A stretch of 29,994 nt of DNA, taken from Stellaceae bacterium (lineage in GTDB: Bacteria; Pseudomonadota; Alphaproteobacteria; ATCC43930; CGMCC-115725). The DNA is taken from assembly GCA_035533695.1 (NCBI GenBank), contig DATLTH010000649.1, forward strand, positions 1 to 29,994. Direction: 5' to 3'. Shown here piece by piece: positions 1 to 22,304 of the stretch. How positions within the stretch are numbered: position 1 is the first letter of the stretch; each line of letters opens with the position of its first letter. A program made the translations under genes and the position numbers. A model generated the notes under the pieces. That model did not search any database, was not told the DNA's origin, and worked only from the letters and a program-made list of their open reading frames with translations.

Positions 1-446
1 CAGGCCACCACCAGCACGAATATCGTCACCGCGTGGTCGATGATGGTGGTGAACCCGACCAGCGATCCGGCCTGCTGCAACAAGGGCCACGCCGCCTGGA
101 AGCCGATGCCGGCGAGCTTGCCCGGGCGCAGCAGGTCCTGGGCGCCCAGGCCGTTGTTGGTGGCCGCGAGGCCGAGCGCGGCGAAGGAATCGTAGATCGC
201 GGTGGAGAGCGTCTCGAAATTGTTGAGGATGAGGGCGAAGGCGCCGACATAGAGCACCTTCTTGAGGAGGCTGGCGAGCACGTCGGTGCCGCCGTCGAGC
301 GCCCAGAACAGGCCGGCGAGCGTGACATCGATGCCGATCAGGATCGTGGTGAGATGGGCGACATCGCCGCCCAGGAGACCGAAGCCGCCATCGATGTAGC
401 GGATGAAGGTCTGCAGGAACTGGTCGATGACTCCGAGATTGTTCAT
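1..446 (-). CDS. trbL: P-type conjugative transfer protein TrbL (VirB6-like), 5' part; runs off the window
   Basis: Manual translation from ATG at 446: MNNLGVIDQFLQTFIRYIDGGFGLLGGDVAHLTTILIGIDVTLAGLFWA, a typical TrbL N-terminus. Lies directly after trbJ. Confidence 0.9.
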   Translation of the reverse strand, partial: MNNLGVIDQFLQTFIRYIDGGFGLLGGDVAHLTTILIGIDVTLAGLFWALDGGTDVLASLLKKVLYVGAFALILNNFETLSTAIYDSFAALGLAATNNGLGAQDLLRPGKLAGIGFQAAWPLLQQAGSLVGFTTIIDHAVTIFVLVVA

Positions 447-448
447 CG

Positions 449-1183
449 CTACTGGGCCGTGTACGCGTTGCTGCCGCCGATGAAGCGGCTGAACTCGGCC
501 TGGGCCTCCTCCTCGGCTTCGGCATTGCGGGCCGATTCGAGTGCCACGGCGCGGTCCTGCGCCGCCATCAGGCTCTCGCTCTGGAGCTGCTGCTTGATGG
601 CAAGCGCCCGCAGCTGGTTGGCGATCTGGGCGACCTGCAGATTGCCGGTCGCGCCCTGCGAGGCTTCGACCAGGGTGCCAAGCGTGCCGGTATCGGCCTG
701 GACGTTCTGCGCCACCTGGGCCTGCACCGTCAGCGTCTGGCCGAAGGCGTCCATCGCCTGCTGCCAGCGCTGATGCGCATCCGCAACCAACTGGGCGGTA
801 TTGACCGACGGCGCATATTGCTGCGGGTAGTACTGATCAAAGGCCGCCCGGGTGGCGCTCACATTGAAGGCGATGCCCTGGGCCTGGTTCATCAGGCTGC
901 CGATCTGGTTGAGGTCGGCGACCATCGACCCGAGCTGCGAGACATTGAGGCTCGCCAAGTTGCGCGCCATGTTCTCGAGCATCAGCGCCTGGTTCTGCAG
1001 CGCCTGGATCTGGTTGTCGATCTGCTGCAGCAAGCGCGCCGCCTCGATCACGTTCTGGGCGTAGACCGCGGCGTCGAACACCGCCCATTGGGCACCTGCC
1101 CCACCCGGCATGAGGCAAGCAACCAAGACGGCGAGGACGGACGCTGTCCGAGCCCAGCAACGGGAGGCGGTTGGGCCGCTCAT
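449..1183 (-). CDS. trbJ: P-type conjugative transfer protein TrbJ (VirB5-like), 244 aa
   Basis: Signal-peptide-like N-terminus, then VFDAAVYAQNV and QIDNQIQALQNQALML. ATG at 1183 overlaps the trbE stop (ATGA). Confidence 0.9.
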   Translation of the reverse strand: MSGPTASRCWARTASVLAVLVACLMPGGAGAQWAVFDAAVYAQNVIEAARLLQQIDNQIQALQNQALMLENMARNLASLNVSQLGSMVADLNQIGSLMNQAQGIAFNVSATRAAFDQYYPQQYAPSVNTAQLVADAHQRWQQAMDAFGQTLTVQAQVAQNVQADTGTLGTLVEASQGATGNLQVAQIANQLRALAIKQQLQSESLMAAQDRAVALESARNAEAEEEAQAEFSRFIGGSNAYTAQ

Positions 1184-3621
1184 GGCTTGGATGCCCCTGG
1201 ATATTGCGCCAGCAGATCGGCGGCCCAGTCGAGGCCGCGGGCGCGCAGGAACGCGGACGCAAATTCCCCGCCCTCGGCTACAACGCGGTCGATCAGCGCC
1301 TGGCTCGCGGGATCGGAGGCGCCGCACATCGCCAGCGCGATCGGGCCCAATCCCAGCTCGAACAGGCGGTTGCCGCGGCGCGATTGCAGGTAGTACTGCC
1401 GCTTGGGCACGGCACGGGAGATCAGCTCGATCTGGCGCTCGTTGAGGCCGAAGCGCTCATAGGCGGCCCGTGCCTGCGGCTCGATGGCGCGGTCGTTGGG
1501 CAGGAAGATCCGCTGCGGACAGCTTTCGATGATCGCTGGCGCGATCGAACTTTCAGCGATGTCCGCCAGCGACTGGGTCGCGAACACCACGGGGACGTTC
1601 TTCTTGCGCAGCACCTTGAGCCATTCGCGGATGCGGGTGGCGAACAGCGGGTGATCGAGATAAACCCAGGCCTCGTCGAGGATGAGCAAGGTCGGGGACC
1701 CATCGAACCGCTCTTCAAGCCGATGGAAGAGATAGGTCAGCACCGGCAGGACCACGCCGGTCTCGTGCATCAGCGTCTCGGTCTCGAAGCATTGGACATC
1801 GCTGAGCGCGAGCCGGTCCTCGGCGGCGTCGAGCAGCCGGCCGAAGGGGCCGTCGAGGGTGTATGGCAGCAACGCCGCTTTGAGGGCATTCGACTGCAGC
1901 AGGACCGAGAGGCCGGTGAGCGTCCGCTCCGGTGCCGGCGCCGAAGCGAGGCTGTTGAGCGCCGACCACACCAGCTCCTTGACCTCGGGCGTGACCGTGA
2001 CCTTCTCGTGTGCCAGCAGGCCAGTAAGCCACTCCGCAGCCCAGCTGCGCTCGGCCGGGTTATCGATTCCGCGTAGTGGTTGGAAAGCTAGAGATCCGTC
2101 CGAGCCCAGGCGGTGATGCACGCCGCCGAGGGCGAGGACCGCCGCCCGCGACGAGTTGCCCTTGTCGAAGAGGGTAACCCGGGCGCCGGGATAGCGGCGG
2201 AACTGCAACGCCATCAGCGCCAGCAGCACCGACTTGCCGGCGCCCGTTGGGCCGACGATCAGCGCATGGCCAACGTCGCCGACATGGAGGGCAAAGCGGA
2301 ACGGCGTCGCGCCGCTGGTCTCGGCATGGAAGAGCGGCGGGCCATTGAGATGCGCATCGCGCTCCGGGCCCGCCCAAACGGCTGACACCGGCACAAGGTG
2401 CGCGAGGTTGAGGGTATGGACGATGGGCTGGCGGACATTGGCGTAGACCTGCCCCGGCAGCGACCCGAGCCAGGCCTCGACCGCATTGACGCTCTCGCGG
2501 ATGGTGGTGAAGCCAGCGCCGTGGATGGCGCGCTCGACCGCCCGCAGCTTCTCGTCAACCCGCCGCCGGTCGGGATCGAGCACCGTGACGGTGGCCGTCA
2601 GATACCCGAACGCGACATGGTCGCCGCCCAGGGCCTGGAGCGCTTCGTCGGCATCCGCCGCCTTGTTGGCGGCATCCGAGTCGAGGAGCTGGACCGGCTC
2701 GTTGGTGAGCACCTCGCGCAGCAGTATGGTGATCGACTTGCGCTTGGCGAACCATTGCCGCCGCAGCCGGGTCAGGACTTTGGTCGCCTCGGTCTTGTCG
2801 AGGGCCATGAACCGCGTTACCCAGCGATAGGCAAAGCCCAGATGATTGAGCGCATCGAGCAAGCCGGGCCGCGTCAGGCTGGGGAAGCCCAGCACCGAGA
2901 GCGTGCGGAGATGGTGGTCGCCGAGCATCGGCTCGAGCCCGCCGCTCAAGGGCTCGTCCACCAGCACGGCATCGAGATACATCGGCGTCTCCGGCACCGC
3001 GATCGGATGCCGCCGGGTCGAGATCGTGCCGTGCAAGTAGGTGAGCGTCTGCGCATCGTCGAGCGCCGCGATCTCGGGCATGAAGCCTTCGAGCAGATCG
3101 CGTACGCGCTCGGTCTCGGCGATGAAGGCCGCGAGCTCGTAGCGCCAATCGCGGTCCGCCTGGGCGGTCTCGACCAGGGCGCGCTCGGCCCGGCTCACCG
3201 GGTCGGCCGGCGGCAGAGTGAGCAGCGTCAGATGATAGGCGCTCTCGTAGGGATCGCGCACTGCCGGGGATTCGGGACCTAAGCCTTCGCCCGGCGCGAA
3301 GGCGGCGCGGCGTTCGCGATCGACCAGCCATGATACTGCCTCGGGGAATGTGGATTCGGAATAGCCCGGCGCGGCAAAGCGCTCGGCGTCGAAGAACAGC
3401 GCCCAGCCCGAGCCGAAGCGCCGCAGCACGTTGTTGAGCCGGGCGCAGGTCGCAATGAGTTCGGCCTCGGTGGCGCTCTCGAGATCGGGCCCGCGGAAGC
3501 GGAAGCTACGCTGGAAGCTGCCGTCCTTGTTGAGCACCACGCCCGGAGCGACCAACGCCGCCCAGGGCAGATGGTCGGCCAGCCGGTCGGCCCGGCGGCG
3601 GTATTCGGCGAGGTTCAGCAT
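1180..3621 (-). CDS. trbE: Conjugal transfer ATPase TrbE (VirB4 family), 813 aa
   Basis: Starts MLNLAEYRRRADRLADHLPWAALV. Walker A GPTGAGKS, Walker B LLILDEAW, FATQSLAD motif. Confidence 0.95.
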   Translation of the reverse strand: MLNLAEYRRRADRLADHLPWAALVAPGVVLNKDGSFQRSFRFRGPDLESATEAELIATCARLNNVLRRFGSGWALFFDAERFAAPGYSESTFPEAVSWLVDRERRAAFAPGEGLGPESPAVRDPYESAYHLTLLTLPPADPVSRAERALVETAQADRDWRYELAAFIAETERVRDLLEGFMPEIAALDDAQTLTYLHGTISTRRHPIAVPETPMYLDAVLVDEPLSGGLEPMLGDHHLRTLSVLGFPSLTRPGLLDALNHLGFAYRWVTRFMALDKTEATKVLTRLRRQWFAKRKSITILLREVLTNEPVQLLDSDAANKAADADEALQALGGDHVAFGYLTATVTVLDPDRRRVDEKLRAVERAIHGAGFTTIRESVNAVEAWLGSLPGQVYANVRQPIVHTLNLAHLVPVSAVWAGPERDAHLNGPPLFHAETSGATPFRFALHVGDVGHALIVGPTGAGKSVLLALMALQFRRYPGARVTLFDKGNSSRAAVLALGGVHHRLGSDGSLAFQPLRGIDNPAERSWAAEWLTGLLAHEKVTVTPEVKELVWSALNSLASAPAPERTLTGLSVLLQSNALKAALLPYTLDGPFGRLLDAAEDRLALSDVQCFETETLMHETGVVLPVLTYLFHRLEERFDGSPTLLILDEAWVYLDHPLFATRIREWLKVLRKKNVPVVFATQSLADIAESSIAPAIIESCPQRIFLPNDRAIEPQARAAYERFGLNERQIELISRAVPKRQYYLQSRRGNRLFELGLGPIALAMCGASDPASQALIDRVVAEGGEFASAFLRARGLDWAADLLAQYPGASKP

Positions 3622-3869
3622 GCGAGATGCGACCGCTGCCGCAGATGGCGCGCCAGCACTTCGGCGAAGCGCGGATCGCGCCGCGCCGCGAACACCGCCA
3701 GCGAATGCCCGAGCGCCCAGAGCGCGAGGCCGGCCAGCCAGAGATGAAGCCCGAGGCCGAGTGCCGCCGCGACCGTGCCGTTGACAATGGCGATCGAGCG
3801 CGGCGCGCCGCCGAGCAAGATGGGTTCGGTGAGCGCGCGGTGCAGCGGCACTTCGAGACCGGGAGTCAT
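3615..3869 (-). CDS. trbD: Conjugal transfer protein TrbD (VirB3 family), 84 aa
   Basis: EVPLHRALTEPILLGGAPR motif, hydrophobic core, ATGA overlap with the trbC stop. Confidence 0.9.
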   Translation of the reverse strand: MTPGLEVPLHRALTEPILLGGAPRSIAIVNGTVAAALGLGLHLWLAGLALWALGHSLAVFAARRDPRFAEVLARHLRQRSHLAC

Positions 3870-4177
3870 ACCAGCGCCCCACCGGCGAAGGAGAAGAACG
3901 ACAGGAAGAAGCTCGACGCGGCGAAGGCGATCGAGATGCCGAACACGATCTGGATCAGGCGGCGGAATCCGCCTGAGGTCTCGCCGAAGGCGAGGCTCAG
4001 CCCGGTGATAATGATGATGATGACGGCGATGATCTTGGCGACCGGCCCCTGCACCGAATCGAGGATCTGCTGCAGCGGCTGCTCCCACGGCATGTTAGAG
4101 CCCGCGGCATAGGCTGGGGCAGCAAGGGCCAGGACGGCGAGGCTGGCGAGAGTCCTATATATAAGGTGTCGGCGCAT
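3866..4177 (-). CDS. trbC: Pilin TrbC (VirB2 family), 103 aa
   Basis: Signal peptide, then MPWEQPLQQILDSVQGPVAK and two hydrophobic helices. AAGGAG SD upstream. Confidence 0.92.
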   Translation of the reverse strand: MRRHLIYRTLASLAVLALAAPAYAAGSNMPWEQPLQQILDSVQGPVAKIIAVIIIIITGLSLAFGETSGGFRRLIQIVFGISIAFAASSFFLSFFSFAGGALV

Positions 4178-4194
4178 TCGTGTTCTCCTTTGGT

Positions 4195-5148
4195 TCAGGC
4201 GGCGCGCGGGGCGAGATCGGCCAGCGCGTAGTCGCCGTCGGCACCGAGACCGGTGACCTCGGCGATGGTGTCGACCAGACGCGAAGGGCCGCGCCCACGA
4301 ATGAACACGACGCAGTCGATCGCCTCGGCAATGAGCCGGCGCGGCACGGTGACGACGGATTCCTGGATCAGCTGCTCGAGCCGGTAGAGCGCGGCGCGCG
4401 CCGAGTTGGCATGGACCGTCGAGATGCCGCCGGGATGACCGGTGTTCCAGGCCTTGAGTAACTCCAGCGCCTCGCCGCCGCGGACCTCGCCGACGACGAT
4501 CCGGTCGGGCCGCAGCCGCAAGGTCACCCGCACCAGATCGGCGAGGCTCACCCCGGGCTTGGTGCGCAGCGCGACGCAATCGGGCGCCGCGCATTGCAGT
4601 TCCCTTGTATCCTCGATCAGGATCACCCGCTCGTCGGCGATCTCCGCCAAGAGCGCATTGGCGAGCGTGGTCTTGCCCGAGCTGGTGCCGCCCGCGACCA
4701 GGACGTTCTGTCGCTCCGTCACCGCGCGCTTCAGCGTCTCTGCCTGCAAAGGCGAGAGGATGCGGTCAGCGACGTAGTCGCTCAGCCGGTAGACCTTCAC
4801 GGCCGGCTTGCGGATGGCAAAGCACGGCGCCGCCGTCACCGGCGGCAGCACGCCCTGGAAGCGCTCGCCGGTCTCGGGCAGCTCGGCGCTGACCAATGGA
4901 TTGCCGGCATGGGCCTCGAGCCGGACATGCGAGGCAACGAGGCGAATGATCCGCTCGGCCGCGGCGGCGCTGAGATGGGTGTTGGTTGCGACCCTCCCCT
5001 CGCCCAGCCGGTCGAGCCGCAGCCGCCCGTCGGGATTAACCATGACCTCGAACACCGCCGGATCGGCGAGCGCCGCCGCGATCTCCGGTCCCATCGCGGT
5101 GCGCAGCATGGCGCGCCGCCGGCCACGGGTTTCGGGATGCTCCGTCAT
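4195..5148 (-). CDS. trbB: P-type conjugative transfer ATPase TrbB (VirB11 family), 317 aa
   Basis: EVMVNPDG, Walker A GGTSSGKTT, LRLRPDRIVVGEVRG, WNTGHPGG. Confidence 0.95.
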   Translation of the reverse strand: MTEHPETRGRRRAMLRTAMGPEIAAALADPAVFEVMVNPDGRLRLDRLGEGRVATNTHLSAAAAERIIRLVASHVRLEAHAGNPLVSAELPETGERFQGVLPPVTAAPCFAIRKPAVKVYRLSDYVADRILSPLQAETLKRAVTERQNVLVAGGTSSGKTTLANALLAEIADERVILIEDTRELQCAAPDCVALRTKPGVSLADLVRVTLRLRPDRIVVGEVRGGEALELLKAWNTGHPGGISTVHANSARAALYRLEQLIQESVVTVPRRLIAEAIDCVVFIRGRGPSRLVDTIAEVTGLGADGDYALADLAPRAA

Positions 5149-5861
5149 GGTGCCACTCCGCGACGGTCGCGTCCCCAAGGCAGATCGATCTGGCGCTCGG
5201 CGTCGGTCAGTCGCCGGCAGGCGAGCGTGAAGGAGTCCGGATCGCGCTCGATGCCGACGAACCTGCGACCGAGCTGTCGACACGCGAGTCCCGTGGTGCC
5301 CGATCCCATGAAGGGATCGACGATGGCTGCATCTCGCGTCTTGGCGATGAGCCAGAGCATCACCGCCAAGGGTTTCTGGTAAGGATGCCCCACCGCCTCG
5401 GCGTCGCGGCCCAGGCGCGGCACCGTGGTATCGATCACATCGGTGCCGCCATAAAGCTGGAACCCTAGCTGCGACAGCACCGCGATGGGCTCGACCGACC
5501 AGGCGGTGCGGCCAGCCACCGACGGCCGGGGATCGCGCTTGCGCATATAGAGGAACCGGGTCTTGGCGTAGCCGGCGGCGTGCGCTGCGGCCAAGAGCTG
5601 CGGCATGTGCTGCGGCGGCCAGAAGGTCAGCACCGGCGCGCCGCGGCAGAGTGTTAGCCAAGCGAGGTCGCCATCGTCCCACGGCTCGCGCACCAGCGCG
5701 GCGCTCGGATCGCGGCCCTGCCCCGATGCCGTGCGACGCCAGCCACCGGTGCCGTAAGGCGGATCGGTCACGATGAGCTCGATACCCTCCAGGTGCGGCA
5801 AGATCTCGCGGCAATCGGCGCGATAGAGCACGGCCTCGCCGATCACGACCTTGCCGTTCAT
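5145..5861 (-). CDS. Orphan N6-adenine/N4-cytosine DNA methyltransferase (beta class), 238 aa
   Basis: Catalytic DPPY near the N-terminus, HPYQKP, SAM-binding DPFMGSGTT, FVGIERD. ATGA overlaps with copG upstream and trbB downstream. Confidence 0.88.
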   Translation of the reverse strand: MNGKVVIGEAVLYRADCREILPHLEGIELIVTDPPYGTGGWRRTASGQGRDPSAALVREPWDDGDLAWLTLCRGAPVLTFWPPQHMPQLLAAAHAAGYAKTRFLYMRKRDPRPSVAGRTAWSVEPIAVLSQLGFQLYGGTDVIDTTVPRLGRDAEAVGHPYQKPLAVMLWLIAKTRDAAIVDPFMGSGTTGLACRQLGRRFVGIERDPDSFTLACRRLTDAERQIDLPWGRDRRGVAP

Positions 5862-6247
5862 GGCGGCAGCACCTCGGCGGCGAGGCTCTTGCCGCCGGCA
5901 ACCCGGCGGCCGACCTCGGCGATGAAGGCCTTGAAGCGGTCCTGCCCGATGAGCTGCGCCGTCCGATCGGGCTCGACCTGGGCATAGACCGTGAACTGGA
6001 AGCGGATGAAGAGCGCCAGTGTCTCGGCGATCACCTGCTGGTCGCGCTCGATGCGGCCCAATTGCAGCGACAGCTTGTCGAGCCGCACCTTGAAGCGCTC
6101 CTCGAGCTCGCCCGCGCCGCGCCGGTCGAGCCAGGCTTTGAGGGCATCGGTCATGATCGCGGTCTTGCTCGCACCGGGCTTCGCCACCAAGTCCGCCAGG
6201 CGCTCCGAGAGCGCTCGATCGAGGGTGAACTCGTGCCGCTGTCTCAT
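5858..6247 (-). CDS. CopG/ribbon-helix-helix protein (msi031-like), 129 aa
   Basis: N-terminal RHH pattern (KPGASKTAIMTDALKAWL) and the RLDKLS...IERD...ETLALFIR coiled region. Usual position between traG and trbB. Confidence 0.8.
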   Translation of the reverse strand: MRQRHEFTLDRALSERLADLVAKPGASKTAIMTDALKAWLDRRGAGELEERFKVRLDKLSLQLGRIERDQQVIAETLALFIRFQFTVYAQVEPDRTAQLIGQDRFKAFIAEVGRRVAGGKSLAAEVLPP

Positions 6248-6254
6248 CGGGGCC

Positions 6255-8270
6255 TCAGAACGACGGCAACAGGTCGTCGCGGCGGTCGCCTTCGTTCATC
6301 GCATGGGCGCGGCCAACCGCCTGGTCGAGGGCCAGCGACTCCGCCGGATCGTCGCCGTCGTCCGCGACACCCGATTCCACATCGGGCTCTGGTGCACGCT
6401 GCACTACCGCGGCCTCGGGCAACCCGAGATGCCGCAAGCGCCGCAATCCGCCCTCATCAGCCTCGCCGTCGAGCTCGCGCGCGACCGCGGCCTGGAGCCG
6501 CAGGTCCGTGCCGCGCACTCGCCCGGTCCAATCATCGGGGCGCGGCGGCGGCCGGTCGCGATAGCCGTCGGCCGCCAACTCCGGCGGCAGCATCCTGCGT
6601 CCGGCAAAGTTCTCGTCCTCGTAGTAGCGCAGCTTGCGGGCGCGGATCGGCGGTAGGCCCGAGACCAGGACTAGCTCTTCGTGCGGCGGCAGCTGCATGA
6701 CCTCGCCTGGGGTCAGCAGCGGCCGGGCCGACTCCTGACGTGAAACCATGACGTGGCTGAGCCACGGCGCCAGGCGATGTCCGGCATAGTTGCGCTGCAG
6801 CCGCAGCTCGGTCGCGGTCCCGAGCGCATCCGAGATACGCTTGGCGGTGCGCTCGTCATTGGCCGCAAAGGCGATGCGGACATGGCAGTTGTCGAGGATG
6901 GCGTTGTTTTCGCCATAGGCCTTGGCGATCTGGTTGAGGGACTGGGCGATCAAGTAGGCCCGGATGCCGTAGCCGGCCATGAAGGCAAGCGCGGTCTCGA
7001 AGAAGTCGAGCCGCCCCAAAGCCGGAAGCTCGTCGAGCATCATCAGCAGCCGGTGCCGCCGCACCTTGGCGGGGTCGCCCTCGAGCTGCTCGGTGAGCCT
7101 GCGGCCGATCTGATTCAGCACCAGCCGCACCAGCGGCTTGGTGCGGGAGATATCCGAGGGCGGGATGACCAGATAGAGCGTCACCGGCCGCTCGGCGTCC
7201 ATCAGATCGGCAATCCGCCAGTCGCAGGCGGTCGTGGTCTGGGCGATGACCGGGTCGCGGTAGAGCCCGAGGAATGACATCGCGGTCGACAGCACGCCCG
7301 AGCGCTCGTTCTCCGACTTGTTGAGCACCTCGCGCGCCGCTGAAGCCACCACCGGATGGACGGCCGGATGATCGGACGTGCCGAGATGGTTGGTCGCCAT
7401 CATCCGGCGCAGCGTGTGCTCGAACGACCGCTGTGGGTCGGAGAGGACCGTCGCGACTCGGGCGAGGGTCTTGTCTTGCTCGGCGTAGAGCACGTGCAGG
7501 ATCACGCCGACCAGCAACGCGTGGCTGGTCTTCTCCCAGTGATTGCGGCGGTCAAGCGCCCCTTCGGGATCGACCAGGATGTCGGCGATGTTCTGGACAT
7601 CGCGCACCTCGTGCGGCCCCTGGCGCACCTCGAGCAGCGGGTTGTAGCGCGCCGAGCGCGGATCGGTCGGATTGAACAGCAGGCAGTGCGAGAAGCGCGA
7701 CCGCCAGCCTGCCGTCAGCTGCCAGTTCTCGCCTTTGATGTCGTGGACCACGGCGCTCTCGGTCCACGACAGCAGGGTCGGGATGACAAGGCCCACCCCC
7801 TTGCCGCTGCGGGTCGGCGCAAAGGCGATGACGTGCTCCGGCCCGTCATGGCGCAGATAGCGGTCCTGCCAGCGCCCCAGGAACACGCCCGCCGGCTCGA
7901 ACAGCCCGGCGCGCTCGATCTCCTGACGATTGGCCCACCGCGCCGAGCCGTAGGTGGTGACGAGCCGGCTCTGCCGCGCCCGCCACAGCGAGCCGATCAC
8001 CGCGACGACGATCCCGGCGAACCCACCGGAAGCCGCGATAACCCCCGCCTCATTGAACAGCGCCGGGGCATAGCCGTCGTAGACGTACCACCACTCGAAG
8101 AGCCGCCAGGGGTAATAGACCGGCCACGACAGCAGCACGAACCACGGCGCCCCAAGCGGCGGCTGGTAGCCGAGCTGCGCCGCGGCCCACTGTGTCGCCA
8201 GCCACAGCCCGCCGATGACGATGGCAAAGACGACGGCGATCTGGCCGAGGAGGAACTTGGTGGGCGTCAT
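6255..8270 (-). CDS. traG: Type IV coupling protein TraG (VirD4 family), 671 aa
   Basis: MTPTKFLLGQI start, YGSARWA, Walker A APTRSGKG, DIKGENW, LMLDELPALG, QSLNQI. Confidence 0.95.
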   Translation of the reverse strand: MTPTKFLLGQIAVVFAIVIGGLWLATQWAAAQLGYQPPLGAPWFVLLSWPVYYPWRLFEWWYVYDGYAPALFNEAGVIAASGGFAGIVVAVIGSLWRARQSRLVTTYGSARWANRQEIERAGLFEPAGVFLGRWQDRYLRHDGPEHVIAFAPTRSGKGVGLVIPTLLSWTESAVVHDIKGENWQLTAGWRSRFSHCLLFNPTDPRSARYNPLLEVRQGPHEVRDVQNIADILVDPEGALDRRNHWEKTSHALLVGVILHVLYAEQDKTLARVATVLSDPQRSFEHTLRRMMATNHLGTSDHPAVHPVVASAAREVLNKSENERSGVLSTAMSFLGLYRDPVIAQTTTACDWRIADLMDAERPVTLYLVIPPSDISRTKPLVRLVLNQIGRRLTEQLEGDPAKVRRHRLLMMLDELPALGRLDFFETALAFMAGYGIRAYLIAQSLNQIAKAYGENNAILDNCHVRIAFAANDERTAKRISDALGTATELRLQRNYAGHRLAPWLSHVMVSRQESARPLLTPGEVMQLPPHEELVLVSGLPPIRARKLRYYEDENFAGRRMLPPELAADGYRDRPPPRPDDWTGRVRGTDLRLQAAVARELDGEADEGGLRRLRHLGLPEAAVVQRAPEPDVESGVADDGDDPAESLALDQAVGRAHAMNEGDRRDDLLPSF

Positions 8271-8303
8271 GCCGGCACGCGCAAAAACATGCCAACAGGA
8301 ATC

Positions 8304-8334
8304 AACGGCGGCCCCCAAAAGGCCAATCGCCGTT
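8304..8334. promoter_or_regulatory. Inverted repeat AACGGCG-N17-CGCCGTT in the divergent traG / membrane-gene intergenic region
   Basis: 7-bp perfect arms at 8304-8310 and 8328-8334, 34-64 bp upstream of the traG ATG. Binding protein unknown. Confidence 0.3.
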
Positions 8335-8459
8335 ATCTACGCCATAACGCGACGGTCCACGATCACGCCGCCGTCACAGGAAGAAATGCTGAAGCGAGCG
8401 CGACAGACTCTGGCGCTGCCGATTCCAACGACGGTAGACTCACGGCGTTGGAGGTGCCG

Positions 8460-8930
8460 ATGCTTGCAGTGATTCTGTTGTTCGTTGGCCTCGGTGCGGC
8501 CTGTGTCGCGCTGTACCAATTCGCCGTGTTCGCGTTGCCGGTCTATTTGGGCTTTGCCGCCGGCTTCTGGGCGATCCATACTGGCGCCGGTGCGATGGGT
8601 GGCATTCTGGTCGGCTTCATCGCCGGCGCGCTGGTGTTCGTCGTCGGCCAGCTTGTGTTCGCCAGCGCTCGATCGCCGATCCTCCGCATCCTGATGGCGC
8701 TGCTCTTCGCAGTCCCGGCGACTTATGCCGGCTACAGCATCGTCCAGCAGGTCTGGGCGCTCAGCATGCCGCCAAATGCATGGCGATACGTGTTCGGGGT
8801 CGTGGCGGCAATGATCACGGGTGGTACGGCTCTTGCGCGCCTTTCTGCGCCGCTGCAATCAGCGGCCGTGCGGCGCGAATCAGTTCACAAACGGACTGCG
8901 AACAAGGCGCCGAGCCAGTTTGCCGCTTGA
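8460..8930 (+). CDS. Multi-pass membrane protein of unknown function, divergent from traG, 156 aa
   Basis: GGAGG SD before ATG 8460. About 5 hydrophobic segments. Resembles, from recall, the conserved membrane gene next to traG in alphaproteobacterial ICEs. Confidence 0.75.
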   Translation: MLAVILLFVGLGAACVALYQFAVFALPVYLGFAAGFWAIHTGAGAMGGILVGFIAGALVFVVGQLVFASARSPILRILMALLFAVPATYAGYSIVQQVWALSMPPNAWRYVFGVVAAMITGGTALARLSAPLQSAAVRRESVHKRTANKAPSQFAA

Positions 8931-8984
8931 GGAGCGCCCTGAGGCTCGCGAACAGAACCGGGCGTGGTTGCCGATCACCCGCCG

Positions 8985-11080: not shown

Positions 11081-13051
11081 TCATGAAATCTCCCGCCCCT
11101 TGCGCTCGCGGCCGAGCGCCCAGGAAATCGACTCGCCACGCGCGACCCCGGAGACGTGCTTGCCGAGGTTCCTCTCCAGCACCGGACGCCACGGCACCAG
11201 GGTAAACTCCCGGCCTCTTTCGACGAGCGCGAACCGGCCACTCGCGAGATCGACCCGACGCCGATAGACGCCCTCGATGCGCCGGCCGGGCCGAAGTTCG
11301 GTGTAGTCGAGCCCGAGTTCGTCCGAGAGCTGCGCGCCGATGCGAGCCAGCTCGCGCCGGCGGAGCAGACTGAGCAAGTTCACCCGATAGACGATCCGAT
11401 CTTGTTCGGTTTCAGCAAGATCTTGCTCGATGAGCCATCGCCGACGCCGTGCGAGCGCCTCACGCACTTCGTTCCCGAATCCCCTGTCACTGACGGCGGC
11501 GGGCTTCTCAGCCATGAGTTCGCGATCAAGCCAGGTGGCACCGTCGGCTCGGATCTGGCGATCGAGCGGCAGTGTCGACAGCGCCTCCACCAGCACTGGT
11601 GTCATCCGAGCCTGTGCACGCTCGTAGGCGGCGGTACGCTCGAGATGATCGGGCGCGATGATCCAGGTGCCATCGGGCTGCCGCTCGACGCCCACCTTGG
11701 CGCGGCGCATCGCTTCGAGCCGGCGCACGTGGGTTTCCGCCAATGCCGCCGTTGCCGACGGATCATGCCGCAGATGGATGTCGACGCTATAGCGGCCCCG
11801 CGTTGCAGCCGCGATCTCAGCAACGGTGCGGTCGACACGGCGTGGCGCCACCGGCTTGGGCTCGATGGCGACGATGGCGCCTTCTGGAGTCGGCTCGAGG
11901 GCATCGGCCCTGCCGATGTCGACGTAATGCGCGCGGCCATCCACGCCAGCGACGATGAGGTAATGGTGATCGTTAAGCTCGTCTGAGAGGCCGCGTCGGA
12001 TGACCCGTCCGACCAGCCGCTCAGGCTTCGGATCGGCCGGATCGTAGATCGCGATGTCCGGCATCAGAGGCGGCCTGCCCTTACCTGCCAGTTCGTGATG
12101 GAGCGCCTTGATGATGTCGCCGCGCTCGCCCATGCGGCGGAGCACCGGTTCGAGGTCCGCTGCAAGACGCCAGCGCGATGGCGCAATCTCCTCGACCAGG
12201 CCGAGCCGCTTCAACTTCTGCAGCCGTCCTGCCCTGAGAGTCTGGTGAAAGGCGTCATCGGCAACCGTTCCGGAGCGGACGATCCCGTCCGCGTCCGCTT
12301 CGCGCAACAGCCCGCGGTCGAGGCTGGTGAAACGCTCCTGCTCGATCTCGGCACGGAGCCTGGCTTCGATCTGCCGGTTCGTGCGTGGGCCGAGGTCGAG
12401 TGTCACGACCTCGGCGGCACGCTCCCGCATGCCTTGGGTCAGGTACTCGCGCGCAATGATCAGATCCTTGGCGCGCTCGTCTTTACCCCTGAGCACGACA
12501 TGGGTGTGCGGATGACCGGTGTTGTAGTGGTCGACGGCGACCCAATCGAGCTTGGTGCCGAGGTCCGCCTCCATCTGCCGCATGAGCCGCCGGGTGAAGC
12601 CCTTGAGATCGTCATATTCGATCGCATCCTCCGCCGAGACGATGAATCGGAATTGATGCCGGTCGCCGTCGCAACGCTCGAGAAAAGCCGGACCATTGGC
12701 GCGATCATGCTGAGCGTCATAGAGGTCGCCGGGCAGCCCATCGCGGGTAACGCCGTCGCGCTGCAAGTAGCGGAGATGGACCTGGGCACCCTTCAAGCCA
12801 CGGCCGGCGAGTTTGATGAGCCGAGCCTTTACAATCACACGCCGGGTCCGGAAGGCAGCATAACGGTCACGGGATCCGAGTACCCGGCCGACGCCAGCGC
12901 CGCGGCCGATCCGGCTACCACTGAAACGACTCCGACGTCGTCGGCCACCGGCCGCCGCGACGCCCCGCTTCACCGCGCGCAGATAGGAACTGCGCAGCTG
13001 GCGATTGCCGATGCGACCGAGCCTTGGCTCGAAGTCATCATCGCGGCTCAT
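11081..13051 (-). CDS. rlxS: Relaxase RlxS/VirD2-like (MOBP type with DUF3363-like C-terminus), 656 aa
   Basis: HLRYLQRDGV (motif I Tyr), HQFRFIVSAED, DWVAVDHYNTGHPHTH (HUH), C-terminal LVPWRPVLERNLG. Confidence 0.92.
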   Translation of the reverse strand: MSRDDDFEPRLGRIGNRQLRSSYLRAVKRGVAAAGGRRRRSRFSGSRIGRGAGVGRVLGSRDRYAAFRTRRVIVKARLIKLAGRGLKGAQVHLRYLQRDGVTRDGLPGDLYDAQHDRANGPAFLERCDGDRHQFRFIVSAEDAIEYDDLKGFTRRLMRQMEADLGTKLDWVAVDHYNTGHPHTHVVLRGKDERAKDLIIAREYLTQGMRERAAEVVTLDLGPRTNRQIEARLRAEIEQERFTSLDRGLLREADADGIVRSGTVADDAFHQTLRAGRLQKLKRLGLVEEIAPSRWRLAADLEPVLRRMGERGDIIKALHHELAGKGRPPLMPDIAIYDPADPKPERLVGRVIRRGLSDELNDHHYLIVAGVDGRAHYVDIGRADALEPTPEGAIVAIEPKPVAPRRVDRTVAEIAAATRGRYSVDIHLRHDPSATAALAETHVRRLEAMRRAKVGVERQPDGTWIIAPDHLERTAAYERAQARMTPVLVEALSTLPLDRQIRADGATWLDRELMAEKPAAVSDRGFGNEVREALARRRRWLIEQDLAETEQDRIVYRVNLLSLLRRRELARIGAQLSDELGLDYTELRPGRRIEGVYRRRVDLASGRFALVERGREFTLVPWRPVLERNLGKHVSGVARGESISWALGRERKGREIS

Positions 13052-13155
13052 GGCGATGCCCCGTGTTCAAGCTGCGGCCGACAACGCGGCGTAATGGAGC
13101 GGCGCCGACGCCGGAGGGATCGAGTTCGCAGCAGATCAACGGCTTGCACACTGGT

Positions 13156-13281
13156 TGGAGGGAAATGCGTGCGTTCCCTCCACCGATTCCGATGTGCAGA
13201 CCGAGCGATACCCGACGGTAGGAGGGTTTCTTTTATCTTGCTCTCCGCGGCCCCGAAGACCCCTGCCGCTCGTGTCTGCAC
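13156..13281 (+). other. Candidate oriT upstream of the relaxase
   Basis: TATCTTGC at 13234-13241 is one mismatch from the IncP nick consensus YATCCTG^Y. It is enclosed by a 14-bp bulged inverted repeat (13194-13207 / 13267-13281). A separate 9-bp IR lies at 13156-13182. Confidence 0.55.
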
Positions 13282-17337: not shown

Positions 17338-17538
17338 TCAGAACAGGCTCAGCTGGTTGCGCGCGTCCTCGTCGAACAGGCCGATGTTCAAGGGCTTCTG
17401 GGTGCTGCGCGGTGCCAGGGGCGCGTCCATCAACCGCTCCAGCCGCGCGCGCAGGCTCACCGGCCGGACGCCGGGAATGAGGAACTGCTCGCCCTCGGGC
17501 GTCGGCTCGGTGGCGGGCGGCTGGTCGGGCGCGCTCAT
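17338..17538 (-). CDS. Small protein, 66 aa, ending in QLSLF
   Basis: ATGA overlap with the ardC stop. Sequence MSAPDQPPATEPTPEGEQFLIPGVRPV...IGLFDEDARNQLSLF. Confidence 0.75.
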   Translation of the reverse strand: MSAPDQPPATEPTPEGEQFLIPGVRPVSLRARLERLMDAPLAPRSTQKPLNIGLFDEDARNQLSLF

Positions 17539-18449
17539 ACCGCGGCTCCGGTGGCGCGGAACGCGAGCAGGTAATCCGCCGCCTTGGAAGCGGCGCTGGC
17601 AGCGCGGAAGATGGCGCGGTTGTCCTCCCGCAGGACTTCCAGCCATGACCCGAGGTAGTCGGCATGGCGGACGGTCGGCACGATGCCGAGCGCGGCGCAG
17701 ACAAAGGCGCTCGCCATCTCGGCGACCAGTTCCTCGCGGGCATAGAGCGCCGAGCCGAAAGGGCCCGACTGGTCGCGGCCAAGCCGGGATTTATGCCCCG
17801 TCCAGTGCCCCAATTCGTGAAAGCACGTGCGGTAGTAGTCGATGGGCTGGAAGAAGGCGGCTTGCGGCGGCACGCGGATGGTATCGCCGCTCGGAAAATA
17901 GACCGCTTCCCCACCCCCAACCCGAAAATCCGCCCCCGTCGCCGCGATCAGCGCTTCGGCCTGCGGCACGACGTCAGGCTCGGGCAGGACCACCGGGCTG
18001 CCGAGCACATGATCCGGCAGGCCGTCGCATTGGGCGACGTTGAATACGGTGAAGCGCTTGAGGAACGGCACCGCTTCGGGTTCCTCGCCCGCCTCGGCCG
18101 CGCGCTCTCGCTCAGCCTGCGGCACAAAGCGGTCGGCATAGAACACGGTCGTACCGCGCTCGCCGTGGCGCACATGACCGCCGAGCCCGAGCGCCTGCCG
18201 ATAGGTGAGCCACTGCTGGGTGGCAAAACCTCGGGCGACGGCCGCATCCCACAGGATCAGAATGTTGATCCCGGTGTAGTGCCGGCCGGTGGCGGCATTC
18301 TGCGGCAGGCCCAAGGCGGTCTTGACCTGACCCCAGGGCTGGACCCAGGGCACCCGTCCCTGCTCCAGCTCGGCGACGATCCGGTTGGTGATCTCCTGAT
18401 AGAAGCTGGTCCGCTGGGCACGGCTGCCCGACTGTTGGTCTCGCTGCAT
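17535..18449 (-). CDS. ardC: Antirestriction protein ArdC (DUF1738 plus zincin-like domain), 304 aa
   Basis: YQEITNRIVAELEQGRVPWVQPW, YTGINILILW, WLTYRQA, HELGHWTGH, YAREELVAE. GGAGG SD. Confidence 0.92.
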   Translation of the reverse strand: MQRDQQSGSRAQRTSFYQEITNRIVAELEQGRVPWVQPWGQVKTALGLPQNAATGRHYTGINILILWDAAVARGFATQQWLTYRQALGLGGHVRHGERGTTVFYADRFVPQAERERAAEAGEEPEAVPFLKRFTVFNVAQCDGLPDHVLGSPVVLPEPDVVPQAEALIAATGADFRVGGGEAVYFPSGDTIRVPPQAAFFQPIDYYRTCFHELGHWTGHKSRLGRDQSGPFGSALYAREELVAEMASAFVCAALGIVPTVRHADYLGSWLEVLREDNRAIFRAASAASKAADYLLAFRATGAAV

Positions 18450-18477
18450 CGCTGGCCCTCCGCTCGAAACCCCGCGC

Positions 18478-18810
18478 GCCTTTCCCCGGAAGCGGGGTGG
18501 GCGGCGAGAAGCGACCGGAAGGCCCGCCGGCGGAGGCGGGCCGCACCCGGAGGGCCGGAACGAAGAGGAGGACCGAGCGCGGCGAGGTTGCGGCACGCCG
18601 CGGCGGGCCTAGACGGGCGCGCCGCCCACCCCGCGCCACCGGGAAAGGCCAACGAACAAGTTCATCGCGCGCACGCGCGATGGCCGCTGCCGCCCGCCCT
18701 GCGGGCGCCGCGCCAGGGAGCGAAGCCTGCAGGGCCGAGACGTCCTGAGCTCTGGCGAAGGACGGCTCGGTTCACGAGCGCCCGGCGCGCGCCGTCAGGC
18801 GCGCGGGCGC
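18478..18810. repeat. Array of nested inverted repeats upstream of ardC
   Basis: 15-bp perfect IR at 18492-18506 / 18620-18634, extended by a 9-bp IR at 18478-18486 / 18641-18649. Further hairpins at 18521-18542, 18663-18682 and 18778-18810. Confidence 0.75.
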
Positions 18811-20855: not shown

Positions 20856-21488
20856 TTAGGCCGCCTCAACGATCACCGGCGCCCAGAGCGCCGGACTCGT
20901 GATTCCGCCCCCGTTGCGTATGCGCAGGAGCGCTGCGGTCGAGACCTCGAGGTAGCCCGCAACCGCCAGGGTGTTGCCGATCGCCCGGGGCTCCGCGATC
21001 CGGCGCAGCGGCCAGCCGGCACGGCGCAGGATGCGTTCCATGCGGGCGTCGGTCACGGTGACAATATCGGTGAGCCGCCGCGACAGGCCGAACTCGATCA
21101 TGCCGGCAAAGAGCTCGAAGGTCGCGACCGCGATACCGGTCTCCGCCTTACGCGCCTCGGGCGGCAGGTCGAGCGCGAACCGGCTGCTCTCCCAGAGCGA
21201 CGCAACAGCCGGCACTTGGCTACTGCCCAACAGCGATGGGAACACGTCGCGCAGCATGGTCGGCCCGGTCGATGGGAGGAGGCGGACACAGCCTTGGAAC
21301 GACCCATCCGCGCCGCGTTGCAAGAGATACGCCGGGTGCAGCGCGTCGAATTCGTCGATCTCGAGATCGCCGCTGACTTGGACGTCCCAGTGGAGACGGT
21401 CCTTGAAGACGCGGTAGCGCAGTCGGTGCATCGCAGCGAGCTCGTTGACAAACTCGCCGTAAAGCTCCGACGTAATGAGCTGCATCAT
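20856..21488 (-). CDS. traI: Acyl-homoserine lactone synthase (LuxI family), 210 aa
   Basis: MHRLRYRVFKDRLHW, EIDEFD, GCVRLLP, WESSRF. AGGAGG SD. Confidence 0.95.
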   Translation of the reverse strand: MMQLITSELYGEFVNELAAMHRLRYRVFKDRLHWDVQVSGDLEIDEFDALHPAYLLQRGADGSFQGCVRLLPSTGPTMLRDVFPSLLGSSQVPAVASLWESSRFALDLPPEARKAETGIAVATFELFAGMIEFGLSRRLTDIVTVTDARMERILRRAGWPLRRIAEPRAIGNTLAVAGYLEVSTAALLRIRNGGGITSPALWAPVIVEAA

Positions 21489-21547
21489 CGCCGTCCTCCT
21501 GCCACGAATCGAATGCCCGTATTGCAGTCGAACGGACCAACGGACGT

Positions 21548-21569
21548 ATCCTGTACAACTGCACAGGAT
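21548..21569. promoter_or_regulatory. tra box upstream of traI (minus strand ATCCTGTGCAGTTGTACAGGAT)
   Basis: 7-bp perfect arms ATCCTGT/ACAGGAT. The 18-bp core shares TGTGCAG with the Agrobacterium tra box. About 60-80 bp upstream of traI. Confidence 0.8.
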
Positions 21570-21581
21570 GCCGACGGACCG

Positions 21582-22304
21582 CTAGCAACCTAGCGGCTGC
21601 GATGCGGCGAAGCGGGCGACGGCCTGGCAGACCGACCGAACGCCGAGTTTGGCCTTCGCATTCTCGAGGTGAAAGGCGGCGGTCCGCCGTGAGACGCCGA
21701 TAATCTGCCCGATCTCCCAGGCGGATTTGCCGCGGGCCGCCCAAGCGAGACATTCGTACTCGCGCGGCGACAGCGCGACGCCATCGACGACACGTTCCGA
21801 TGCGAGTTTACGCCGGGCATGCGCATGGAAGTACATCGCCATCAGCTGCAAGGTGGGGCCTTGCTTCTCGATCGCGTGCCGAAAGGCGGCGTGCGGCACA
21901 TCCGCGGCGAAGGTGACGGCGGCAACCGGACCACGAGAGTCATGGATCGGTACGGTGAAGCCACAGCGAATGCCAAAAGCGGCAGCCTCCTCGAACAGCT
22001 GTCGCTGGGTGGGAGACCCGTTGAGCGCGACCTCCCTGCCCCATTCGAACGGCTCAGTGGCCCGTAGCGCCGCAACAATGACCGGATCGAACCGCTCGTA
22101 GTGCTGCTTCAAATAATGCGCCGTCCACGCGGGCGGGTACGTCGAAATCAGCTGTGGCGCGCCGCGCAAACGGCTCGGCAAGGCGAGGTAGGCAAAGCAC
22201 GGCACATCGAGCCGTGTCGCTGCCGCCACGATGGTGGCGCGCAGCGATGCGGCATCGGTGCTATTCGCAAGCCCATCGATGAACGACTGGAAGATCTGAT
22301 GCAT
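21582..22304 (-). CDS. traR: LuxR-family quorum-sensing activator TraR, 240 aa
   Basis: AHL-pocket residues in YPPAW, HY, FDPV, FEW. C-terminal HTH LSPREYECLAWAARGKSAWEIG. Confidence 0.93.
   Translation of the reverse strand: MHQIFQSFIDGLANSTDAASLRATIVAAATRLDVPCFAYLALPSRLRGAPQLISTYPPAWTAHYLKQHYERFDPVIVAALRATEPFEWGREVALNGSPTQRQLFEEAAAFGIRCGFTVPIHDSRGPVAAVTFAADVPHAAFRHAIEKQGPTLQLMAMYFHAHARRKLASERVVDGVALSPREYECLAWAARGKSAWEIGQIIGVSRRTAAFHLENAKAKLGVRSVCQAVARFAASQPLGC

Follow-up and report, generated by a model that had tools for sequence, protein, structure and literature searches.

An orphan DNA methyltransferase of phage type at the RHH-trbB junction of an integrative and conjugative element, and its possible role in donor-side pre-methylation

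The stretch of DNA analysed here, hereafter the window, comprises 29,994 nucleotides of a metagenome-assembled genome (MAG) of a Stellaceae bacterium (assembly GCA_035533695.1, contig DATLTH010000649.1, positions 1 to 29,994) and carries part of an integrative and conjugative element (ICE) of the ICEMlSymR7A/Tn4371 type. Within the transfer operon of this element, on the minus strand at 5145..5861, a gene for an orphan beta-class DNA methyltransferase of 238 amino acids (P0001), probably specific for N6-adenine, stands between a ribbon-helix-helix (RHH) gene and trbB. The identity, intactness and placement of this methyltransferase, its rarity in this slot, its phage-type ancestry and the purifying selection acting on it were observed or computed directly; on analysis of these features, its most likely role would be anti-restriction on the donor side. 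With somewhat better than even confidence, the gene is interpreted as a phage-derived orphan N6-adenine methyltransferase that was captured by a narrow ICE lineage at the RHH-trbB junction and that serves to pre-methylate the element in the donor.

The open reading frame (ORF) at 5145-5861 on the minus strand gives a stop-free translation, P0001, whose assignment draws on profile searches, a structure model, structural matches and the ratio of nonsynonymous to synonymous substitution rates (dN/dS). In profile searches the protein reached 58 bits against the Pfam family PF01555 (N6_N4_Mtase; cut-off 26.7) and E = 1.2e-37 against the phage family phrog_67 of PHROG; it also matched the PADLOC models for Type II and orphan methyltransferases. 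Motif IV, DPPY (residues 33-36; 5754..5765, minus strand), precedes motif I, FMGSGTT (residues 184-190; 5292..5312, minus strand), the S-adenosylmethionine (SAM)-binding loop, and this circularly permuted order is the one found in the beta class. Both motifs were read from the translation and are conserved: across 117 homologues, D33 and Y36 are invariant, and conservation reaches 90% or more at P34, P35, F184, S187 and G188. The stop-free frame and the PF01555 match above cut-off bear out the first-pass annotation, which had recognised an intact beta-class methyltransferase by its DPPY and FMGSGTT motifs.

An AlphaFold2 model of P0001, based on the 117 homologues, was confident, with a predicted local distance difference test (pLDDT) score of 89.7 and a predicted TM (pTM) score of 0.87. 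Its best Foldseek matches in the PDB were the N6-adenine enzymes M1.HpyAVI, CcrM and M.BceJIV (E 1e-13 to 1e-15, TM 0.63-0.74), with N4-cytosine enzymes ranking lower; together with the DPPY motif, these top structural matches make N6-adenine the most likely target base. An identification as CcrM itself was considered and rejected; the CcrM equivalog NF050803 gave 53.5 bits, compared to a cut-off of 830, and covered residues 149-223 only, and P0001 is without the extra C-terminal DNA-binding domain of CcrM.

The methyltransferase gene is joined to both of its neighbors by overlapping codons. The stop codon TGA of the RHH gene overlaps the methyltransferase ATG in an ATGA junction at 5858..5861 (minus strand), and the methyltransferase TGA overlaps the ATG of trbB in a second ATGA at 5145..5148 (minus strand), both as the first-pass annotation had described them; Shine-Dalgarno-like sequences, GAGG at 10 nt and GGAG at 7 nt, lie upstream of the methyltransferase and trbB start codons, respectively. 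The preceding gene (P0002; 5858..6247, minus strand, 129 amino acids) is an msi031-like, CopG-like RHH backbone gene, recognised by the position of its homologues and by a weak RHH_1 match of 17.9 bits that falls under the cut-off, while the following gene (P0003; 4195..5148, minus strand) is trbB, encoding the P-type conjugative ATPase (TIGR02782, 401 bits; cut-off 304.55). Only 7 nt separate the stop of the coupling protein gene traG from the RHH start, and a scan of positions 3800-8800 for promoter- or terminator-like sites gave none on the operon strand. This architecture strongly suggests a single traG-RHH-methyltransferase-trb transcript, and with the ATGA coupling and the Shine-Dalgarno-like sites it lends weight to the proposal in the first-pass annotation that the methyltransferase would be co-expressed with the transfer genes. 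Upstream of traG, a stretch of about 650 bp (8337-8984) is without a recognisable gene, apart from a 173-amino-acid ORF (8337-8858) without a family match; it is likely the promoter and regulatory region of the traG-RHH-methyltransferase-trb unit.

How unusual this arrangement is was examined in two surveys: the first covered, among GTDB species representatives, the 80 loci with the nearest TrbB (69-81% identity), including Mesorhizobium, Sphingomonas, Caulobacter, Bradyrhizobium and Rhodospirillales, and the second took 29 TrbB loci (53-78% identity) from a phylum-wide sample of 400 genomes. The RHH homologue ends directly before trbB in all 80 of the nearest loci, as the first-pass annotation had held to be normal, and in agreement with a survey of Mesorhizobium ICEs in which "msi031, trbBCDEJLFGI" forms one conserved cluster (PMC8627217). 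A P0001-like gene in the RHH-trbB slot was found at none of these 80 loci, and a methyltransferase upstream of trbB at none of the 29 more distant ones; the frequency of methyltransferases in this slot, which the first-pass annotation had proposed to survey, thus comes to 0 of 109 related trbB loci. A literature search found no paper on a methyltransferase between copG/msi031 and trbB, and tblastn against a plasmid database recovered only distant methyltransferases (at most 33% identity) in leading-region-like clusters, none of them adjoining trb genes. At some of the more distant loci (L121, L122, L127, L128 (738-1473) and L130), a gap of 250-750 bp separates the RHH homologue from trbB downstream of it, and no methyltransferase motif was found there.

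In several relatives in which the junction was read (for example, L016, L022 and L027), the stop codon of the RHH gene overlaps the start codon of trbB in an ATGA, and by this comparison RHH-ATGA-trbB is the ancestral state. The methyltransferase was therefore placed exactly at a translational-coupling junction, with ATGA re-created on both sides; the Shine-Dalgarno site in the 3' end of the RHH gene, originally that of trbB, now serves the methyltransferase, which provides a new one for trbB. A few related ICEs carry 2-3 kb of cargo in the spacer that separates traG from the RHH gene (L042, 2336-5581; L087, 3036-5605; L031, 3413-5599); in L042 it encodes an AraC regulator, a class II aldolase and an alpha/beta hydrolase, and in L087 a 690-amino-acid DUF4238 protein. 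From these loci, the usual insertion point in related ICEs is the traG-RHH spacer and not the RHH-trbB junction.

The occupied slot recurs in a narrow lineage. A second contig of the same MAG (C340) carries a methyltransferase with 92% amino acid identity in the same slot; its trb segment (L104, 9297-15610) is 89% identical at the nucleotide level to window positions 1-6314 over 6.3 kb, and the two contigs represent related ICEs that share one genome or else a pair of strains that were binned together. Outside this MAG, the occupied slot was found in three other metagenomic sources: a methyltransferase with 89% identity to the window copy (P0004) occurs as an identical protein in one JGI contig and two ENA contigs and also in a Logan contig, and a second JGI contig has a methyltransferase of 90% identity in the same slot, so that identities within the lineage span 89-92%. 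A scan of metagenomes yielded 13 loci with homologues, of which only two, at 89-90% identity, had a trb context; the runs with DNA of the ICE lineage are soil metagenomes. The flanking genes have diverged to a similar extent (TraG 88%, RHH 90%, TrbB 93% identity), a pattern consistent with a gene that was captured once and then diverged along with the backbone. Among 400 genomes sampled from the same class, P0001 had no match at E <= 1e-30 beyond the MAG of the window itself, and within this sample the family appears to be essentially metagenomic or phage-borne.

Pairwise dN/dS among four distinct methyltransferase variants ranged from 0.08 to 0.19 at dS values of 0.43-0.87, and the catalytic motifs are all intact; the corresponding ratios were 0.11-0.18 for trbB and 0.09-0.23 for the RHH gene. 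Since the methyltransferase ratio is as low as that of trbB, the gene is under purifying selection in this position, and by these evolutionary criteria the methyltransferase is functional. The narrow lineage, and the absence of a slot methyltransferase from all related trb loci surveyed, would also be expected of a neutral passenger that brings the ICE no benefit; given the low substitution ratios and the preserved catalytic motifs, such a passenger is very improbable.

The methyltransferase gene has a GC content of 0.685 and a GC content at third codon positions (GC3) of 0.82, which match those of its neighbors; a recent acquisition, detectable as foreign composition, was considered, and no sign of it was seen. 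The long-term residence that this composition indicates would also suit a general and untimed form of protection, in which basal expression keeps ICE and host DNA methylated and so immunises the cell against restriction-modification systems of matching specificity, whether invading or lost, and the position of the gene is incidental; orphan methyltransferases can shield genomes from post-segregational attack by such systems (Takahashi et al. 2002, as cited in PMC11541004 and PMC11602122). However, the seamless insertion keeps both translational couplings, and within the lineage the downstream junction has been re-made in two ways, with overlaps of 4 nt and 8 nt; the double coupling and the two re-made junctions argue for selection on expression within this operon. 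The cargo of related ICEs also inserts between traG and the RHH gene and not in the RHH-trbB slot, and such untimed protection is given a low probability.

The closest relatives outside the ICE clade share at most 66% identity with P0001, and the homologues at 54-63% identity were found in early regions of phages or prophages in six out of six contexts examined, with markers such as RusA, P22-like proteins, an AAA_25 primase-helicase, terminase with P22 portal, a CI repressor and multi-methyltransferase modules. Maximum-likelihood analysis recovered the ICE sequences as one clade with full support (100/100), whose long stem (0.9 substitutions per site) arises from within the phage-context sequences. 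The family is large, with more than 7,000 clusters at the 90% level reaching E <= 0.001 among 8,000 candidates scored; at the 50% level, only about a dozen clusters exceed approximately 245 bits. The breadth of the family suggests that the gene moved from phage to ICE. Phage homologues are frequently coupled to their neighbors by [AG]TGA overlaps. Phage contigs with P0001 homologues often hold further methyltransferases (L110, 7409-9646 and 10022-10717; L008, 7284-8501), including a C5 methyltransferase with an HNH insert and a second N6_N4 methyltransferase, which together constitute multi-methyltransferase anti-restriction modules.

The phage-type ancestry also bears on the possibility that the methyltransferase is an epigenetic regulator, which by methylating ICE promoters or oriT sets or locks a transfer-competent state and thereby maintains a bistable subpopulation. 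Dam methylation modulates the transfer genes of some plasmids. The gene directly follows that of a DNA-binding RHH protein in the transfer operon, where a feedback loop is possible, and it is under strong selection; moreover, methylation has been noted to regulate transfer, and transfer of one plasmid from a dcm donor fell 10-fold even where restriction was absent (PMC11602122). Yet the relatives of P0001 are orphan methyltransferases of phage early operons, for which self-protection is the usual reading, and the missing counterparts at related trb loci place the gene outside any conserved regulatory circuit; no candidate target sites came to light, and a regulatory function is regarded as a minor alternative of low probability.

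The backbone of the window, with RlxS, IncP-type TraG, the RHH-like protein, the methyltransferase, TrbB, TrbC and TrbE, is that of an ICEMlSymR7A/Tn4371-type ICE, and all of the following genes lie on the minus strand where a strand is given. The relaxase gene rlxS (11081..13051, minus strand; NF041267, 988.9 bits, cut-off 850) defines the ICE type; traG (6255..8318, minus strand) encodes the IncP-type coupling protein (NF010450, 1139 bits, cut-off 674). Beyond trbB follow the pilin gene trbC (3866..4198, minus strand; PF04956), trbD (~3615-3869) and trbE (1180..3630, minus strand, start approximate; NF010447, 1360 bits, cut-off 1020), in the gene order of L004. The methyltransferase gene is located downstream of rlxS in the same orientation, inside traG-RHH-trbB; across rlxS from it are genes for an SLT transglycosylase, a helix-turn-helix protein, a 577-amino-acid ParB_N protein and the anti-restriction protein ArdC (17535..18596, minus strand; PF08401, PF18818), with a LuxI-type acyl-homoserine lactone synthase and a LuxR-type regulator for quorum-sensing control further on (20856..22304, minus strand; PF00765, PF03472, PF00196). 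ArdC and the acyl-homoserine lactone system, whose presence on the element the first-pass annotation had implied, are thus both encoded here. Its remark that the window holds no restriction endonuclease likewise stands, in that neither a restriction endonuclease nor another defence nuclease was recognised by Pfam, NCBIfam or PADLOC among the tested window ORFs, on a contig whose end falls within the trb operon. Within the limits of the window, the methyltransferase, flanked by the RHH gene and trbB, is an orphan by gene content, and L004 is arranged alike.

Leading-region methyltransferase genes are among the first-entering genes next to oriT; the P0001 gene lies on the opposite side of rlxS from the genes of ArdC and the ParB_N protein. 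This placement assumes a transfer polarity inferred from MOBP-type elements. The spacer upstream of rlxS contained no RP4-type nic consensus; nested inverted repeats at 13140-13203, upstream of rlxS, consist of 11-nt arms around perfect 9-nt arms and form a candidate oriT hairpin.

In the scenario of donor-side pre-methylation, the ancestor of a narrow lineage of ICEMlSym/Tn4371-type elements would have acquired the methyltransferase from a family of phage early operons, by insertion exactly at the ATGA junction that coupled the msi031-like RHH gene to trbB, so that ATGA now stands on both sides. Translation of the traG-RHH-trb message would yield the enzyme together with the mating channel; in donors that switch on transfer, with LuxI/LuxR encoded on the ICE, it would methylate its short target sites on ICE and host DNA alike. 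The transferred strand would retain its methyl marks, and after second-strand synthesis in the recipient the ICE would be hemimethylated and resist restriction systems of shared specificity, a role that would complement that of ArdC. Since the gene is part of the mating-pair formation (Mpf) operon and not of the leading region, its timing would be different, and the enzyme should act in the donor.

Several points weigh against this scenario. Protection would work solely against restriction systems of matching specificity, and the target sequence of P0001 is not predictable, because its resemblance to characterised enzymes is confined mainly to the SAM-binding half and it has no close characterised relative. 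The known anti-restriction methyltransferases of plasmids belong to the leading region and are expressed early in the recipient, and for a gene in the mating-pair operon the analogy is incomplete; the late entry of the methyltransferase gene into the recipient is predicted from family knowledge. The ICE is incomplete at the contig end, and a cognate nuclease could lie elsewhere on the element. As a further caveat, purifying selection means that the gene is useful, and is silent on what it is useful for.

The C-terminus of P0001 deserves separate consideration. M1.HpyAVI ends three residues past the equivalent of P0001 L218, and M.BceJIV within about ten; because these solved relatives end earlier, residues 219-238 of P0001 (window 5148-5207, minus strand) are taken to reach past the core fold, and the pLDDT of the model declines from 97 to 74 and then 53 toward the C-terminus. 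Within this extension, the hexapeptide QIDLPW (residues 224-229; 5175..5192, minus strand) resembles a beta-clamp-binding peptide. Peptides of this kind are pentapeptides of the QL(S/D)LF type or hexapeptides of the QLxLxL type, accessible and as a rule placed at a terminus or within a disordered tail. The clamp motif of Escherichia coli Hda is QLSLPL. The Hda-like protein of the MAG itself starts with MTQLAINL, and QIDLPW fits the loose hexapeptide form of the motif; the published consensus for clamp binding, which is acknowledged to vary, is QL(S/D)LF (PMC9690074).

In homologues the last core helix is directly followed by Q-x-D-L-F, Q-x-x-M-F or Q-E-V-L-P-L (or -A-L, or -D-F), in many cases as the extreme C-terminus, and the form of the ICE clade is Q-[ITA]-[DN]-L-P-W, compared to Q-x-D-L-F in the family. 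Among close homologues, 99 of 107 matched a permissive pattern for the motif, and at the 50% identity level 104 of 122 representatives did so, versus about 11 (~10%) for shuffled tails; the motif starts at a fixed offset, 14 or 18 residues past the G-[IV]-E strand, and 10-16 members per set have a second copy further along the tail, including the canonical-looking QLSLL and QLTLF. The weak resemblance to a beta-clamp motif that the first-pass annotation had seen in QIDLPW was therefore an understatement, as the motif is conserved in roughly 85-93% of the family. Conservation within one family does not amount to independent evidence, and it could instead reflect a structural helix end; a role of the conserved C-terminal motif in clamp binding is suggestive only. 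A literature search found no paper on DNA methyltransferases of bacteria or phages that bear such a motif. It is conceivable, and proposed here tentatively as less probable than its converse, that the motif is a beta-clamp-binding peptide by which the phage methyltransferase family rides the host sliding clamp and methylates DNA during its synthesis, and that the ICE co-opted the enzyme so that methylation would track the replacement-strand synthesis of conjugative transfer. On the same ICE, a 66-amino-acid ORF just downstream of ardC (17338-17538, minus strand) ends in the canonical QLSLF and also contains NIGLF; its product is a second candidate clamp-binding protein.

The same tail is informative on whether the methyltransferase might be a substrate of the type IV secretion system (T4SS) that accompanies the DNA through the channel and methylates the ICE on its arrival in the recipient. 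The predicted co-expression with the channel would suit such a substrate, as would the arginine-rich end RDRRGVAP of the window copy. Yet the tail after LPWGR is not conserved: the window copy has RDRRGVAP and the C340 copy RDRLGAAP, whereas L004 and L092 share RLALPGPRHE, a difference that resembles a frameshift. Nor was any relaxase-like or known translocation signal found in the methyltransferase, and its phage relatives have no such need. The suggestion in the first-pass annotation that the enzyme may be a T4SS substrate is left unsupported by this variation of the last 9-11 residues among ICE variants; with only a slim chance of being correct, export is the weakest of the three alternatives of epigenetic switch, untimed immunisation and export.

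Orphan methyltransferases on mobile elements are well known and have been described as leading-region, recipient-acting enzymes; a selected methyltransferase that is chained into the mating-channel operon differs in timing. If donor-side pre-methylation is true, the donor would prepare its DNA before departure, solely when transfer is switched on, and ICE anti-restriction would have a donor-side layer. The gene would also be, if confirmed, a clean natural example of seamless insertion at a 4-nt coupling junction. The conserved clamp-motif-like tail of this phage family offers a lead on how orphan methyltransferases keep pace with fast-replicating DNA, and this lead is the part that could prove more than ordinary.

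Comparison with known systems brings out both shared and divergent traits. M1.HpyAVI (5hfj), CcrM (6pbd) and M.BceJIV (8urk) share with P0001 the fold, the DPPY and FxGxG motifs and the SAM-binding half, whereas overall identity is 22-25%, the target-recognition region is unaligned, and P0001 has a 20-residue tail past the end of M1.HpyAVI. The orphan methyltransferases of bacteriophages (Murphy et al. 2013, as cited in PMC11541004; phrog_67) belong to the same protein family at 54-63% identity; in contrast to these, P0001 is encoded within the transfer genes of an ICE, and its clade is set apart by a long stem and by Q-x-[DN]-L-P-W in place of the C-terminal Q-x-D-L-F. If the motif of P0001 binds the clamp, the eukaryotic DNMT1-PCNA pair (PMC9690074) would follow the same logic of a methyltransferase riding the clamp to methylate new DNA; this is an analogy only, since clamp and motif class differ.

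Orphan methyltransferases are enriched on conjugative elements and rank among the most prominent families of plasmid leading regions (Samuel et al. 2024, PMC11541004). These leading-region enzymes, including the single-stranded DNA methyltransferases of pESBL (Fomenkov et al. 2020, as cited there), are likewise solitary, located on a conjugative element and presumed to act in anti-restriction, and P0001 shares its element with ArdC. They differ from P0001 in position, since they adjoin oriT, enter first and are expressed early in the recipient, whereas the P0001 gene is found between the RHH gene and trbB; the distant plasmid methyltransferases recovered by tblastn occur in clusters with ParB_N or Lar. 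A mechanistic parallel in the donor comes from Dcm and the plasmid-borne cytosine methyltransferase of pKAZ3, which measurably protect conjugating plasmids against restriction (PMC11602122). Those enzymes are not part of an Mpf operon, belong to another methyltransferase class and have an experimentally demonstrated effect, compared to the inferred role of P0001; the donor-side methylation by which they confer resistance to matching restriction is the mechanism proposed for P0001.

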